From a virus (lineage: Duplodnaviria > Heunggongvirae > Uroviricota > Caudoviricetes), in IMG/VR virus record IMGVR_UViG_2609459792_000007: 64,000 nucleotides of DNA, one strand, 5' to 3'. Position 1 is the stretch's first letter, and each line of letters starts with the position of its first letter. A program made the translations under genes and the position numbers. The notes beneath the pieces are model-generated. The model was not told where the DNA came from. It ran no database searches and was given only the letters and a program-made list of their open reading frames with translations. Below are positions 13,711 through 17,150 of this stretch, in pieces.

Positions 13711-15819
13711 ATGTCTAAAAAACGTTCCATCAAAGAGGTTCAGGACTTCCGTGACAGTGTAAAACGAGTAGTCGCTCTCCTTTCAGGTAAAAACATCCCT
13801 GTTGCAGAACGAGGGGACGACGCTTATGTACGCTATAACGATGATGGAGAGCCAATTCTCGTAAACATCCCATCAATCCCGGATAACGCAACACCGGCAT
13901 TGATGAATGCTGTGCGCGGATTTCTCGATCATGAGGTTGCTCACATTTTGTTTACCGATATTCGTGTGTCCAACAAAATGAGAGAAAAAGGACGCGTTCC
14001 TTCCTGGTCGCTATGGAATGCCTTAGAAGACGTGTTCATCGAGCGAAAAATGGGTCAGGTCTTTAACGGAACAAGACGTAATCTGATGGCAACTCAGCGC
14101 CTTATAATCGAAAAAGTCTTTAAACCAAAGGCTTCAGAGGCTATTGCTTATTGTGGCAAAGATCAGCGCGCGCTTTTTCTAAACTTCTTTCTCTGTCCGG
14201 TTGTAAGAGCCTGGGATGGCCAAGCACCGTTCGTAGATTTCATGGATGAATATTGGCCTGTCATTGAGAAACCAATTTCATTATTAAAAGAACATGGTAT
14301 CGATGTGGCCGTGCGTAACATGTCTTGCACCGAGGATTGTGTAAAGGTGGCTGCGACCATAGCTAAGATCCTCAAAGACACTGAAAGTGAAAGCAAAGGT
14401 AAGGAGTCAGCTCCGGGAAAAACTTCCGATCCTTCAGACGCTGACCAGACGGATGCCTCTGGAGAAAACAATGAAGACAACGAAGATCATGAGACACCCT
14501 CATCGTTAGATAATCACAAATCTATTAAATCAGAGTCACATAGTAAGCACAAACATGATAATAACGACAGTGATGATTCAGATAATCCTGAATCATCAGA
14601 AACAATATTCGATGATACAGAAAATGATAAAGCGGTATCAGATTCTGATGCTTCTGATAACGCGGCGTCAGAATCATTAACCGCTGACCACGAAAAAAGA
14701 AAAACGACAGAAGACGGCTCTTCAGACATTCCAACTCCGTCAAAAATGAGTCTGGAAGAGGCTTTAGAGGAGTTGGATAGCATGGAAGATGAAGTCGGAG
14801 GCATGACAGAAGATGCGCTATCCGAAACGATTAAAAGCGAGTTAACAGAAAGCTCGAAAAGCGAATACAGGCCATACAATCGCTCATACGACTTCATCGG
14901 CTCGATTGATCAGGCAGAAGCCCATATCAAACGGCTTATTAAAACATTCTCCGATATTGATTTAGGTGGATATCCAATCAGCCGTTATCGCATCGTTCCT
15001 GAAGGCAACCAACTCTTCGACAAATATATTGAAAAGCACCTTTCGTCAGGTGTTTCGTCGACGCTGGCAAAAGACCTGGAACGTGCAATAGCAAGCAGAA
15101 ACAGAGTTCAGTTTATACCTGGCCAGCGTCGGGGGCGCATTCATGGTTCAAGTATCTACAGATTAACAATGAATGATGATCGCGTGTTTCGTAAAAAAGA
15201 AGAATCTAAAGCCGTTAACGCCTGTGTTCAACAAGTGATTGATTTATCGGGTTCAATGAGTGGCGAAACGATAAAACTAGCTCTTGCAAGTGCATATACC
15301 ATCGCCGATGCACTTGATCGAATAAATGTTCCCAACATTATCACCGGCTTCACTACATTTGGCAGTCATATGGCAGCAGGAGAACTTAAGGCTATCAAAT
15401 ATGAGTTCTCTCGCTTTGAATCTTTAATGCTACCTATCATCAAAAATTGGAATGAAAAAGCAAATTCTCGCGAAGTTCGCTCACGTATGGGGTGCGTAGG
15501 CTACACATTCCCACTTCTTAATAACGTGGATGGTGAAAGCATAGCCAGCCTTGCATCGTTATTTTCCGGTCGCTTGGAGGACAGGAAGATCATGCTTGTT
15601 CTGAGCGATGGCGCGCCGTGGGCTGTTGGGAGAGGTTTTGACGCCCATTTGCGTTCGGTTACGAAGCAAATTGAAACGCAGACTGACATTGATTTGATGG
15701 CAATTGGCATCATGACTGATGCACCGGAGAGATTTTACGCAAATCATGCCCTGGTAACTAGTGTTGATAGTCTTGGTTCATCTGTAGTTACTGAACTATC
15801 TCGTATCATTTTGAAGTAA
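13711..15819 (+). CDS. CobT-like protein with C-terminal von Willebrand A domain
   Basis: 702 aa; long acidic Ser/Asp/Glu low-complexity linker; MIDAS-like DLSGSMSGE in C-terminal vWA region; immediately upstream of AAA+ partner. Confidence 0.6.
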   Translation: MSKKRSIKEVQDFRDSVKRVVALLSGKNIPVAERGDDAYVRYNDDGEPILVNIPSIPDNATPALMNAVRGFLDHEVAHILFTDIRVSNKMREKGRVPSWSLWNALEDVFIERKMGQVFNGTRRNLMATQRLIIEKVFKPKASEAIAYCGKDQRALFLNFFLCPVVRAWDGQAPFVDFMDEYWPVIEKPISLLKEHGIDVAVRNMSCTEDCVKVAATIAKILKDTESESKGKESAPGKTSDPSDADQTDASGENNEDNEDHETPSSLDNHKSIKSESHSKHKHDNNDSDDSDNPESSETIFDDTENDKAVSDSDASDNAASESLTADHEKRKTTEDGSSDIPTPSKMSLEEALEELDSMEDEVGGMTEDALSETIKSELTESSKSEYRPYNRSYDFIGSIDQAEAHIKRLIKTFSDIDLGGYPISRYRIVPEGNQLFDKYIEKHLSSGVSSTLAKDLERAIASRNRVQFIPGQRRGRIHGSSIYRLTMNDDRVFRKKEESKAVNACVQQVIDLSGSMSGETIKLALASAYTIADALDRINVPNIITGFTTFGSHMAAGELKAIKYEFSRFESLMLPIIKNWNEKANSREVRSRMGCVGYTFPLLNNVDGESIASLASLFSGRLEDRKIMLVLSDGAPWAVGRGFDAHLRSVTKQIETQTDIDLMAIGIMTDAPERFYANHALVTSVDSLGSSVVTELSRIILK

Positions 15820-15914
15820 TTAAAACAGCCTTAATGATAAGTAACTACTTACCATAGTTAATGGTATATTTATATAAGAACTTGAACGCTCATTAGAGAA
15901 CAAAGGAAAAGCGC

Positions 15915-17150
15915 ATGACTACTACTGCACTGCAAAATGATAAAAATCCTTCTGATTACCTTGTTTGCAAGTGGTGCGGCAAATCATTTCACTATTTTAA
16001 GTCCCATGTAGCCAATGGTAATTGCGAGGGCATTCCTGAGTCAGTAAAAGATGCCGATCCTGACACCGTACTGAAAATGTACACAACGCAGTTTCCAGAT
16101 GAACCAACGCTATCGAAAAAGGCACTTGATGCAATTCAAGCTAAACGTGCCGAGCAAAAAAGCGAAATGGCGAAATCTTCTGGCTTGACCAGTAGCCCAG
16201 GCTACACAGGCACAGTTGAGTACAAGACAGATCTGGTCGCAGCTCACGAACTGCTAAACGTAACGGTGGAAGAACTCGGAACAAAACGTGGGACGCCGCT
16301 CATGGTTAGCGTCAACGTCAATACGCCGTATCCAGAGTTCGTTCCAGAAGTGAAGAAGGGCTACGTATATGGCGACTTCGAACTTATCAAAGATATTTTC
16401 ATGATGCTTGAACTTGGCATACCTGGCTATTTGTGGGGTCATGCAGGAACAGGCAAATCGTCATTGCCTACACAGCTATGTGCTTTGCTCAATCGTCCGT
16501 TGATCCGTGCCCAACATACAGCATCAATGGAAGAGGCACATGTTACGGGGCAAATTCTGGCGCGTGATGGCTCTACGTATTTCGAGCCTGGCTTGCTTGC
16601 GCTCGCAATGAAGCATGGCTGGGTTTACCTCGCGGATGAATACGACTTTGCGTTTCCACAAATTCTTGGCGTGTATCAGCCAGTGCTGGAAGGTGAGGCG
16701 TTGGTCATCAAAGAGGCAACTCCAGAATGGCGTCGCATTACTCCGCATGAACGGTTTGCTTTCATTGGCACTGGCAACACAAACGGTTCTGGTGATGAAA
16801 CCGGCTTGTACCAGGGTACAAACATCCAGAACGCCGCGAACTTTTCACGTTTTGGCATCGTTTCGAATGTGAAATACATGAGCAAAGAGGCAGAGATCAA
16901 CATGTTGATAAATGCCGGTATCGTGGATGAATACGCAGAAAAGATGGTTAAGTTTGCCGGTATCGTTCGCGATGGATACGAAGAACACCTTATCAGTCAG
17001 CCAATTGGCCCTCGTGAACTTTTGTTGTCGGCCAAGATTGGAATGATGCGAGGCGACTTTGTGACAGGTATTGAGCGTTCTTTCATTAACAAACTCCCTT
17101 CAGCTTCTGCACAAGCGGCTCGTGAAGTTGTTCAAAAAATATTTGGTTAA
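15915..17150 (+). CDS. CobS/MoxR-like AAA+ ATPase
   Basis: Walker A GHAGTGKSS, Walker B-like VYLADEYD; N-terminal Cys-rich segment CKWCGK...C. Confidence 0.65.
   Translation: MTTTALQNDKNPSDYLVCKWCGKSFHYFKSHVANGNCEGIPESVKDADPDTVLKMYTTQFPDEPTLSKKALDAIQAKRAEQKSEMAKSSGLTSSPGYTGTVEYKTDLVAAHELLNVTVEELGTKRGTPLMVSVNVNTPYPEFVPEVKKGYVYGDFELIKDIFMMLELGIPGYLWGHAGTGKSSLPTQLCALLNRPLIRAQHTASMEEAHVTGQILARDGSTYFEPGLLALAMKHGWVYLADEYDFAFPQILGVYQPVLEGEALVIKEATPEWRRITPHERFAFIGTGNTNGSGDETGLYQGTNIQNAANFSRFGIVSNVKYMSKEAEINMLINAGIVDEYAEKMVKFAGIVRDGYEEHLISQPIGPRELLLSAKIGMMRGDFVTGIERSFINKLPSASAQAAREVVQKIFG

Follow-up and report, generated by a model that had tools for sequence, protein, structure and literature searches.

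Among the closest described systems to the locus analysed here are CobS and CobT of the aerobic cobaltochelatase. In Brucella, the shaft of CobT (Q373-R413) inserts into the pore of the CobS ring, the N-domain of CobT (CobT_N) shows an M48C-like zincin fold in its crystal structure, and CobN contacts the three-stranded sheet of this domain (bioRxiv 10.64898/2026.07.21.739949). Viral cobS/cobT rank with the most widespread of those phage genes whose function is unknown: marine cyanomyophages have them as single-copy core genes, and pelagiphages, haloarchaeal viruses, actinophages, cholera phages and SSU5-type phage-plasmids of Enterobacteriaceae carry them too. In virome studies they are routinely counted among the vitamin-B12 "auxiliary metabolic genes". 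The family has gone by several names, such as the cyanomyophage core gene cobS with a neighbouring "peptidase", or the "porphyrin biosynthesis proteins" of pHCM2/SSU5. No experimental work on it was found in the searchable literature, where it is stated explicitly that such pairs recur in phages with no established role, as an earlier note on this DNA had also remarked.

The window, by which we mean the whole stretch of 64,000 nucleotides that was analysed, is an SSU5-type phage-plasmid of E. coli, and the Cyrano genome is 98% identical to it. Both genes of the pair lie on the + strand, exactly where the earlier note had placed them: a CobT-like adaptor protein of 702 aa (13711..15819) and a CobS-like MoxR-class AAA+ ATPase of 411 aa (15915..17150). 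The adaptor matches phrog_1576 over its full length (aa 5-702, E 6e-301) and the ATPase matches phrog_249 (aa 11-410, E 2.2e-106). Since both proteins match full-length profiles and all lineages examined have the two genes side by side, the pair is, by its sequence, a new member of a viral "cobST" family which was already noticed but is uncharacterised. In RefSeq the adaptor is named "cobaltochelatase CobT-related protein", and the names given by PGAP go no further than "CobT-related protein" for the adaptor and "AAA family ATPase" for its partner. A single architecture was present in 126/126 independent cluster representatives, and the family, with hosts ranging from Archaea to Cyanobacteria, is highly conserved and architecturally uniform. 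The pair was found on plasmids in 4% of complete E. coli genomes and, being carried by an inducible phage-plasmid, it offers a tractable E. coli model for finding the function of these genes.

The architecture proposed in the earlier note, a CobT-like vWA protein with an acidic linker next to a CobS/MoxR-class AAA+ ATPase, was borne out by Pfam, by the MIDAS residues and by the AlphaFold2 (AF2) model. The HMM searches suggested there for CobT, vWA and AAA_5 returned all three: CobT at aa 9-292 of the adaptor (E 3e-27), CobT_C, which is the vWA domain, at aa 492-701 (E 5.7e-83), and AAA_5 at aa 173-293 of the ATPase (E 2e-15); chance does not account for matches of this strength. The vWA domain (15220..15816, + strand) is the C-terminus of the adaptor, with no domain after it, and in the alignment its MIDAS is complete (D511, S513, S515, N605 and D633); the DxSxS motif noted earlier is DLSGS at aa 511-515, and N605 and D633 are invariant across 65 homologues. 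Fold searches placed this domain nearest to NorD and the MIDAS of midasin. An AAA_5-type ATPase gene thus adjoins a vWA protein with an intact MIDAS, as in MoxR-class AAA+ proteins with a vWA partner. The C-terminal half of the adaptor aligns with Brucella CobT at 155 bits, and in this alignment aa 462-503 (15094..15219, + strand) are the counterpart of the Brucella shaft, with G471, R473, G475, D489, R491 and F493 invariant in the same 65 homologues.

The AAA+ core of the ATPase (aa 142-411; 16338..17147, + strand) was mapped residue by residue onto Brucella CobS. It contains Walker A (GHAGTGKS, aa 175-182) and Walker B (DE, aa 241-242), and the Walker A K181, Walker B D241/E242, sensor-1 N288, Arg finger R312 and sensor-2 R367 are invariant in 45 homologues. 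Over this same region the protein matches the PDB entry of CobS (9ujv) at E 1.8e-25; NorQ and CbbQ entries match as well, and a CbbQ_C domain is present in relatives. The ATPase residues, the shaft and the five-residue MIDAS of a CobST-type motor and adaptor are therefore all conserved in the phage pair.

The N-domain of the adaptor (aa 1-228; 13711..14394, + strand) is a homologue of CobT_N, with an E-value of 8e-21 against Pfam CobT when searched in isolation. In the AF2 model (pLDDT 80-95) it is predicted to consist of a first helix, a three-stranded sheet (strands 31-34, 39-42 and 48-53) and then a helical bundle that starts with helix 62-81, and this predicted topology equals the layout of the Brucella CobT_N crystal structure (bioRxiv 10.64898/2026.07.21.739949). 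The domain carries an HExxH zincin motif, H74-E75-V-A-H78 (HEVAH, aa 74-78; 13930..13944, + strand), which in the model is located on helix 62-81, the first helix after the strands of residues 31-53; in zincins, too, HExxH is found on the helix after a three-stranded sheet. A candidate third zinc ligand lies within N103-x-x-E106-D107-x-x-x-E111, and HExxH, N103, E106 and E111 are invariant across 65 homologues at about 30% identity. HExxH was present in 126/126 full-length cluster representatives and in 246/247 phage-type N-domains, whereas 76 of the 77 genuine CobT N-domains are without it and contain S-[MI]-A-L-[RK] (e.g., S-M-A-L-R) in its place. At least one phage lineage has lost it as well, as both histidines are gone from the adaptor of Nican01 (SEISK).

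From the Pfam homology, the predicted topology and the statement on CobT_N in the preprint, we infer a zincin fold for the phage N-domain, which is probably a metalloprotease with a putative active site, although HExxH could bind metal instead of serving proteolysis. The matches listed by the fold searches were to vWA folds only, neither the whole protein nor the isolated N-domain matched a Pfam peptidase family, and the profile-profile comparison of phage-type with genuine CobT N-domains was weak (E 0.005, probability 7%). Behind the N-domain comes an Asp/Glu/Ser-rich disordered linker (aa 229-385; 14395..14865, + strand), which spans about aa 226-385 by composition (D+E 23-40% and S+T 17-30% per 30-aa window), while AF2 predicts disorder at aa 229-337 (pLDDT below 50). 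With an estimate of about 110-160 aa, the ~150 residues given in the earlier note were roughly right. A comparable disordered and acidic linker, about 90 aa long, is present in genuine CobT as well, so it is a family trait and not a special feature.

The N-terminal Cys cluster that had been seen in the ATPase consists of C18, C21 and C37 plus H26 and H31, and it belongs to a putative Ros/MucR-like C2H2 zinc-finger module (aa 16-60; 15960..16094, + strand), as indicated by conservation, hhalign and AF2. The module is conserved in ATPase homologues down to 44% identity, and AF2 gives pLDDT 80-94 for aa 11-87. In hhalign, 114 ATPase N-termini compared with four real MucR proteins gave a probability of 91% and E 1.1e-6, against 0.2% for the reversed control. 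Pfam ROS_MUCR (PF05443) was sub-threshold in 7/10 family N-termini, the best at 23.6 bits with a gathering score of 25.4, and the N-terminus of the window ATPase itself did not match PF05443; its finger keeps C18, C21 and H31, but has Asn at the position of the fourth ligand, a His in the consensus, with C37 nearby in its stead, and an insert. The module is absent from genuine CobS and from the cyanophage and ICP2-type ATPases. By its likeness to Ros/MucR, the finger may tether the ATPase to DNA.

The neighbours of the pair in the window are integrase, repressor, DnaE, UvsY-like, SSB, exonuclease and RecA genes. A 70-aa ORF of unknown function (phrog_2627; 13400..13612, + strand) precedes the pair and comes first to the right of the divergent repressor. 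Between the ATPase gene and dnaE lies a conserved Cys-rich ORF of 56 aa with a GTG start (17153..17323, + strand; C5, C19, C22, C28 and H29), without any Pfam match, which is the short form of a family of 167-230 aa whose place in this phage lineage is always immediately before dnaE. The earlier note did not mention this ORF, the HEVAH motif or the zinc-finger nature of the Cys/His cluster. The DnaE-type DNA polymerase III alpha (17330..20848, + strand; Pfam PHP, DNA_pol3_alpha, finger and HHH_6) shows conserved synteny with the pair: the order CobT-like, ATPase, (sigma-like), Cys-rich ORF, DnaE is kept down to about 35% identity and is present in the strictly lytic Nican01 too. A terminator-like hairpin with a 10-bp stem and a T-run (20855..20879, + strand) follows; it was the only strong one on this strand within 12700-21500 in a consensus scan whose overall counts were not above shuffled expectation, and it may mark the end of a transcription unit. 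The pair and the lytic replication genes may thus form a single transcription unit.

Replication genes surround the pair outside the SSU5 type as well. In a T4-like cyanophage with a family-B polymerase, it is flanked by gp46/47 on one side and by the gp45 clamp and gp44/62 clamp loader on the other, and in a 49-kb ICP2-like podovirus with Pol I it belongs to the replication arm, while the structural arm is encoded on the other strand. The pair is therefore part of the replication gene block in three phage lineages, each of which has a different replicative polymerase; it is a fixed gene pair of this block and not one of a variable island, and no third gene, a client gene included, was conserved beside it across the lineages compared. 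This position suggests a link with replication, and as evidence for function it is circumstantial.

The best reading of these results, which we hold to have about an even chance of being correct, is an ATP-driven MIDAS adaptor with a putative active metalloprotease that acts on a client during lytic replication. If the pair works like the homologous Brucella CobST complex, whose structure is solved, the 411-aa ATPase would form a hexameric AAA+ ring whose pore would grip the shaft of the adaptor, and the client would be held between the MIDAS face of the vWA domain and the N-domain, with the disordered acidic tether joining the two halves. Hydrolysis of ATP would then pull or rotate the adaptor, thereby working on the client. 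In the chelatase counterpart the client is CobN and the N-domain a dead M48-like peptidase fold, but in the phage family the HExxH zincin site of the N-domain is invariant, and the phage machine would therefore most likely carry out ATP-controlled remodelling and cleavage of a specific client protein. Given the position in the lytic unit and the Ros/MucR-like finger, this client would most likely be met in phage DNA replication or in host takeover.

The usual annotation, "porphyrin/cobalamin biosynthesis", implies something else, namely that viral CobST is an auxiliary metabolic gene product that hijacks the CobN of the host and boosts cobalamin synthesis. It has the homology to CobS and CobT in its favour, but the scores against the equivalog models are far too low: 69.1 bits for the adaptor against TIGR01651 (CobT; cut-off 759) and 84.9 bits for the ATPase against TIGR01650 (CobS; cut-off 558.55). 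CobN and cobalamin genes are absent both from the window, where DnaE is the sole ORF of CobN size, and from the whole Cyrano genome, and the phage ribonucleotide reductase is the B12-independent class Ia NrdAB. Genuine loci have cobS directly upstream of cobT on bacterial chromosomes. On the sub-cut-off scores, the lack of CobN and the lack of a cobalamin-pathway context, the aerobic cobaltochelatase CobNST was rejected as the identity of the pair, and the cobaltochelatase orthology that the earlier note had named as what would overturn its view did not materialise. It is established that E. coli has neither CobN nor the aerobic corrin pathway and that V. cholerae has no de novo B12 synthesis, while Salmonella uses the CbiK route, so the window shows the viral family in a host without CobN. 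The phage ATPase also has no C-terminal helix for docking CobT_N, and in cyanophages cobS behaves as a core gene and not as an accessory one. The boost of cobalamin synthesis, although a published hypothesis (Liu et al. 2021), is thus already contradicted for this host, and we give it hardly any credence. The absence of CobN from the host, the intact protease motif and the position in the replication block argue that the family has been wrongly annotated as B12 genes, and the record annotations "dimethylbenzimidazole phosphoribosyltransferase", "cobalamin synthetase" and "porphyrin biosynthesis" are demonstrably misleading.

Other functions can be proposed for the same machine. It could be a chaperone for insertion of a metal cofactor, like CobST, NorQD and CoxDE, supplying the metal to a metalloenzyme of the phage or of its host, for example NrdB (di-iron site) or DnaE (PHP domain), and HExxH with the Glu would then be a site for holding and handing off the metal and not a protease. 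The characterised relatives of the subclass are indeed tied to metal-centre assembly, the nearest folds are those of NorD and midasin, the phage encodes both NrdAB and a PHP-domain DnaE, and the MIDAS site of the chelatase is close to the CobN contact; however, no metalloenzyme is common to all lineages that carry the pair (no ribonucleotide reductase is annotated in the ICP2-like phage, which uses Pol I, and the cyanophage polymerase is of family B), no third conserved gene accompanies the pair, and HExxH is not needed for metal insertion, because the genuine metal-inserting CobT has lost it, so we regard this function as rather unlikely. An intact protease motif and an early position rightward of the repressor would equally suit a protease of host takeover or anti-defence, destroying a host protein early in the lytic cycle, for example one of the nucleoid, a defence factor or a competitor in replication, and the absence of a client gene beside the pair in any lineage fits a client encoded by the host. 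Against this stand the conservation and uniformity of the family across hosts, unlike typical fast-evolving anti-defence genes, and the sole anti-defence similarity, to AcrIIA26 (E 0.011), is best explained by chance; it is quite unlikely in our estimation. A chaperone and protease of virion assembly was proposed for jumbo phages by analogy with the Acidianus two-tailed virus, whose MoxR/vWA pair is needed for tail development (Iyer et al. 2021); ORF892 of this virus was a weak structural match (rank 33), and a peptidase motif could process structural proteins. Yet in every lineage examined the genes are in the replication block, away from the structural genes, and in the ICP2-like phage they share neither strand nor arm with any of these, which makes this proposal improbable. 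The defence or anti-defence role considered in the earlier note found no support. For defence of the lysogen by a vWA-MoxR NTP-dependent conflict system one could cite the matching domain classes (Kaur et al. 2020) and the adjoining integrase and repressor genes, but PADLOC gave no real match (only a spurious DrmE at 16 bits), there is no third component, C-terminal effector or architectural variability in the uniform family, and strictly lytic phages such as Nican01, cyanomyophages and ICP2 have the pair too; since it is located in the rightward lytic unit, it is also probably repressed in the lysogen. We consider this defence of the lysogen very improbable.

The preferred reading, an ATP-driven MIDAS adaptor with a putative metalloprotease, may be extended, and in the extended form we judge it unlikely: a client-specific metalloprotease would be recruited to DNA through the ATPase finger and would clear or process a DNA-bound protein during replication (a roadblock, or a component of the replisome or nucleoid), being the ancestral, catalytically active form that gave rise to the inactive CobT adaptor of cobaltochelatase. 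By analogy, its logic would be that of Cdc48 with Wss1/SPRTN.

In comparison with known systems, the viral cobST pair (PHROG 1576 with PHROG 249) has the gene order and domain layout of the window pair, and nothing essential is different. Within the family, the SSU5, Nickievirus and RHph branch has added the Ros/MucR-like finger to the ATPase and fixed the pair upstream of dnaE, whereas in the cyanophage and ICP2 branches the ATPase bears other N-extensions and the polymerases are different. In the finger, the Cys-x2-Cys-x9-His-x4-His spacing and the flanking residues of the Ros/MucR domain align with the ATPase family consensus, but the partner differs, an AAA+ ATPase in the phage and the MucR oligomerisation domain in Ros/MucR. 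The vWA-MoxR conflict systems share the MoxR and vWA classes with the phage pair; they are ternary, with VMAP or iSTAND as the third gene, their vWA domain is followed by C-terminally fused effector domains that vary, and their architectural turnover is high (Kaur, Burroughs, Iyer & Aravind; Kaur et al. 2020), none of which is seen in the phage pair. NorQ/NorD, CbbQ/CbbO, RavA/ViaA and midasin have adaptors without a zincin domain, and clients such as NorB, Rubisco and pre-60S factors are known for them. With CobS/CobT of Brucella and Pseudomonas (PDB 9uka, 9ujv) the phage pair has in common the AAA+ ring motor, the adaptor built of N-domain, linker, shaft and vWA-MIDAS, and all catalytic ATPase and MIDAS residues. 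Unlike them, it has no CobN partner or pathway context, its ATPase is without the CobT_N-docking helix at the C-terminus (residues 316-328 in Brucella) and carries about 100 extra N-terminal residues with the zinc finger, and its adaptor keeps HExxH intact where genuine CobT has S-M-A-L-R.

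The stretch at 13711-17150 holds exactly two neighbouring + strand ORFs, at the place where the earlier note had described a CobT-like vWA protein paired with a MoxR-type ATPase. The upstream ORF (13711-15819, +) encodes a CobT-like protein of 702 aa, in which Pfam recognises CobT (aa 9-292, E 3e-27) and the CobT_C vWA domain (aa 492-701, E 5.7e-83), with the MIDAS motif DLSGS at aa 511-515 and an Asp/Glu/Ser-rich stretch at approx. aa 226-385. The downstream ORF (15915-17150, +) encodes a CobS-like AAA+ ATPase of 411 aa that matches AAA_5 (aa 173-293, E 2e-15), with the Walker A motif GHAGTGKS at aa 175-182, the Walker B residues DE at aa 241-242 and a cluster of C18, C21, H26, H31 and C37 close to its N-terminus. 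The ORFs and the features claimed for them (the vWA/MIDAS domain with its acidic linker, and the N-terminal Cys cluster) were all found, and that observation is confirmed; what it overlooked is that the N-domain of the CobT-like protein contains HExxH (HEVAH, aa 74-78). In the AlphaFold2 model of this protein (mean pLDDT 76.9) the C-domain is confident, aa 1-228 run from a helix through three strands to a helical bundle and aa 229-337 are predicted to be disordered, while the ATPase model has a mean pLDDT of 86.1.

Escherichia phages CMS-2020a, Cyrano and PhiR41_1 share 97-98% identity with the region, and Salmonella phage SSU5 about 75%; these relatives are the SSU5 group of phage-plasmids. 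At an identity of at least 95%, the pair is present in 219 of 5,426 complete E. coli genomes, in all cases on plasmids (approx. 105-155 kb) and in none on the chromosome; the adjoining dnaE is similarly common (244 genomes, over the wider identity range that megablast still detects). For the E. coli copies, PGAP gives only the names "cobaltochelatase CobT-related protein" and "AAA family ATPase", while other records label the pair "porphyrin biosynthesis protein". In the Cyrano record (OV696614.1, 12312-15751) the CobT-like protein is called "dimethylbenzimidazole phosphoribosyltransferase" and the ATPase "cobalamin synthetase", which is a namesake error, because these names denote the unrelated CobT and CobS enzymes of the Salmonella nomenclature.

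Both proteins are full-length members of phage families, the CobT-like protein of phrog_1576 (unknown function, E 6e-301) and the ATPase of phrog_249 ("porphyrin biosynthesis", E 2e-106), and a search with just the N-domain found 1,120 related sequences among representatives of clusters at 50% identity (E up to 1e-3). Foldseek against viral models found the two-domain architecture also in Gordonia and Brevibacterium phages, in haloarchaeal tailed viruses and in many uncultured Caudovirales. The ATPase has matches in 494 GenBank phage records, the majority from cyanomyophages and the remainder from Vibrio (ICP2-like), Rhizobium, Pseudomonas and Klebsiella phages. A search for related loci by ATPase alignment gave close SSU5-type loci only, and the deeper diversity was drawn from encoding contigs and a phage collection. 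The recurrence of such pairs in phages without an established role, as the earlier note had stated, is borne out by the literature. Liu et al. (2021) reported that tailed viruses infecting eight orders of hosts carry a "cobST two-gene cluster", and proposed that it hijacks host CobN; Iyer et al. (2021) described T4-like jumbo phages with a MoxR-vWA pair carrying an N-terminal metallopeptidase, and proposed a role in virion assembly; and a 2023 oceanographic study stated that cyanophage cobS behaves as a single-copy core gene, and that it is unknown whether it acts in cobalamin synthesis. Given these published descriptions the pair is of an already recognised kind, and it belongs to a known, uncharacterised viral family; our literature searches found no experimental work on phage CobS or CobT.

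The pair differs from the genuine cobaltochelatase subunits at several levels. Against the NCBIfam equivalog models, the CobT-like protein scores 69 bits versus a CobT cut-off of 759, and the ATPase 85 bits versus a CobS cut-off of 558. The sole ORF of CobN size in the window is DnaE, and the complete Cyrano genome contains no tetrapyrrole or cobalamin genes, its ribonucleotide reductase being class Ia NrdAB. It is well established that E. coli has no CobN. Cobalt chelation by the pair in this host is thus highly improbable, and the hijacking of CobN is contradicted for this host.

A further difference lies in the N-domain. From 80 alphaproteobacterial genomes, genuine cobT loci were collected and full proteins extracted; at the position of R-G-F-L-D-H-E-V-A-H in the phage protein, genuine CobT has R-G-L-G-D-S-M-A-L-R/K. 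HExxH is missing throughout 76 of the 77 genuine CobT N-domains, whereas 246 of the 247 phage-type N-domains carry it. The neighbouring blocks RGxxD and ExxxxxE back the register of this comparison; hhalign of the phage-type against the genuine N-domains kept it consistently over 128 columns, although that alignment is weak alone (E 0.005, probability 7%), and the N-domain profile did not reach Brucella CobT_N among PDB sequences. In the AlphaFold2 model, HEVAH lies on the first helix following the sheet, which is the canonical zincin position, with E106 and E111, both invariant, as candidates for the third ligand. Since a motif lost in the chelatase is kept here under strong purifying selection, the phage N-domain is probably an active zincin; we consider activity of this predicted protease somewhat favoured. 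The lineage of the lytic Pseudomonas phage Nican01 has SEISK in place of HExxH. The N-domain profile (aa 92-134; window 13711-14376) also matched AcrIIA26 (PDB 9zq6_B, E 0.011) through an NxLEDxxIE block, but as the AcrIIA26 structure paper describes an acidic DNA mimic of novel fold without a metal site, this match was read as chance.

Upstream of the pair lie a tyrosine integrase (11664-12767, +), a divergent HTH repressor (12762-13148, -) and, between repressor and pair, a 70-aa ORF. The 3' ends of the integrase and the convergent repressor gene overlap by 6 nt (within 11664-13148). The element is maintained as a plasmid, with RepA and ParAB encoded elsewhere in Cyrano, and the integrase may serve to resolve dimers instead of integrating into a chromosome. 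Clustered 5' of the glutaredoxin/integrase region are four tRNA genes (Asn-GTT, Tyr-GTA, Thr-TGT and Ser-TGA; 10082-10639, +), of which the Cyrano annotation lists three, omitting tRNA-Tyr. Downstream, only 2 nt past the ATPase stop, we found an unannotated ORF with a GTG start for a Cys-rich protein of 56 aa (17153-17323, +; C5, C19, C22, C28 and H29), followed by dnaE (17330-20848, +) and then by UvsY-like, SSB, exonuclease and RecA genes. Just 3' of dnaE, a consensus scan placed a terminator-like hairpin (20855-20879, +), the only strong one here on this strand, in a scan that overall did no better than shuffled sequences; one rightward transcription unit, proposed to span 13400-20848, would fit. 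A promoter scan of the region was likewise no better than shuffled sequence, and a search for repeats near the repressor turned up nothing but short inverted ones, none of them convincing.

The 56-aa ORF has no match in Pfam, and relatives with 78-81% identity in the ATPase conserve its coding. This ORF corresponds to the N-terminal module of a family of 167-230 aa (GCFGS...CxxC...C), which always lies directly 5' of dnaE in the related elements L082, L084 and L086, in Nican01 and in Rhizobium phage RHph_N2_6. The order of CobT-like protein, ATPase, (sigma-70-like gene), Cys-rich ORF, DnaE-UDG, SSB, exonuclease and RecA is conserved in environmental relatives at approx. 45% identity, and at approx. 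35% in Nican01 and RHph_N2_6. The sigma-70 region-2 gene (211-224 aa) is absent from the window; three related lineages (L082:11182-11856, L086:11249-11908 and L089:10230-10865) have it, after the ATPase gene and before the Cys-rich ORF; the late sigma factor gp55 is also near the pair in a T4-like cyanophage. DnaE of L082, L084 and L086 ends in a uracil-DNA-glycosylase-family domain (PF03167), while the C-terminus of the window's DnaE (aa 1027-1171) matches only phrog_13175, a family without assigned function. In the T4-like cyanophage P-RSM4, a CobT homologue (annotated "peptidase") and cobS are located between gp46/47 and the gp45 clamp with the gp44/62 clamp loader, and in the ICP2-like podovirus JSF27 (49 kb; no RNR annotated) the pair occupies approx. 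6% of the genome, in the early/replication arm, with all structural genes on the opposite strand. On the basis of these loci, the pair stays beside replication genes across DnaE, family B and Pol I lineages.

The N-terminal extension of the ATPase carries a conserved pattern, Cys-x2-Cys-x9-His-x4-His, for which Pfam ROS_MUCR was a repeated, sub-threshold match. An Agrobacterium Ros sequence was used only as bait for fetching annotated MucR genes. When 114 phage N-termini were compared with four genuine MucR proteins by hhalign, the ligands aligned in register and the probability was 91% (E 1.1e-6), versus 0.2% for the reversed control. The window's own finger contains an insertion and its fourth histidine is missing, C37 being close by; the finger is kept in Nican01 and degenerate in the Rhizobium phage, and cyanophage and ICP2-type ATPases have unrelated N-extensions instead. 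DNA binding by the finger is a tentative suggestion, and we lean slightly against it. A helix-turn-helix suspected by eye in the cyanophage CobS extension was dropped, as Pfam gave no match even at E 10. On a Sulfitobacter plasmid (NZ_CP084958.1), an "ATP-binding protein" (4744-6174 of that locus) has a C-terminal MucR-type finger segment, with 52% identity to Ros across 50 aa, and adjoins a methyltransferase and a DUF262 gene; it is another ATPase-MucR-finger fusion, possibly in a restriction or defence context, and was ruled out as a relative of the pair because its finger is C-terminal and its ATPase not CobS-like.

Of the readings compared, the best supported is a CobST-type motor-adaptor machine with a probable zincin, whose client would be some protein that is not CobN; gene position and the zinc finger suggest that it would act while the phage replicates lytically or takes over its host, possibly on DNA. 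We give this composite reading about an even chance, and a link to replication taken by itself stands equally in the balance. Insertion of a metal into another enzyme is one rival; the gene content of ICP2 speaks against it, as does the fact that genuine CobT works without HExxH. Virion assembly, as proposed for jumbo phages, is opposed by the position of the genes. Anti-host proteolysis is a further competing explanation for the pair. The possible defence role raised in the earlier note was not upheld for the lysogen: PADLOC gave nothing credible (a lone 16-bit DrmE match in the low-complexity linker), an all-against-all neighbourhood comparison found no third gene family common to all three deep lineages, and the defining features of the vWA-MoxR conflict systems are missing.

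Our analysis adds to the recognised family a counted HExxH split between phage-type and genuine CobT proteins, which extends published remarks (the "peptidase" annotation; Iyer et al.), together with a residue-level map of the pair onto new CobST structures, the Ros/MucR-like finger and the conserved cassette with the Cys-rich protein and DnaE; no prior report of finger or cassette was met in the literature searches, which were directed at experimental work on phage CobS and CobT. The main value is practical, namely a CobN-free E. coli model for a pair that virome studies count as B12 metabolism.

The new structures are those of Brucella CobS, CobST and CobSTN (July 2026 preprint, bioRxiv 10.64898/2026.07.21.739949), where CobS is a hexameric ring and the N-domain of CobT, with an M48C-peptidase-like fold, is docked onto the CobS small subdomain. 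A disordered linker of approx. 90 aa leads to the C-domain, whose shaft (Q373-R413) enters the ring pore and is followed by the vWA domain with its MIDAS residues D422, S424, S426, N518 and D546; CobN is held between the three-stranded sheet of CobT_N and the MIDAS face of CobT_C. By homology, the corresponding clamp position in the phage complex would present the client to the active site. While genuine CobS reaches Walker A by residue 72-84, the phage ATPase is approx. 100 residues longer at the N-terminus, and it ends at the alignment position of Brucella CobS residue 315, so it lacks helix 316-328, which docks CobT_N in Brucella. The acidic linker is a family trait shared with genuine CobT, not a peculiarity of the phage protein. 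ATPase aa 142-411 align to Brucella CobS (E 1.8e-25), with K181 (Walker A), D241/E242 (Walker B), N288 (sensor-1), R312 (Arg finger) and R367 (sensor-2) matching their Brucella counterparts and invariant among 45 homologues, and over its shaft and vWA segments Brucella CobT is matched at E 6e-49 by a profile built from eight phage CobT-like proteins. Among 65 homologues at approx. 30% identity, the shaft residues (aa 462-503) G471, R473, G475, D489, R491 and F493 and the MIDAS residues D511, S513, S515, N605 and D633 are invariant. Since conservation, alignments and AlphaFold2 models agree, the motor, shaft and MIDAS mechanics of the phage pair are very likely those of CobST.
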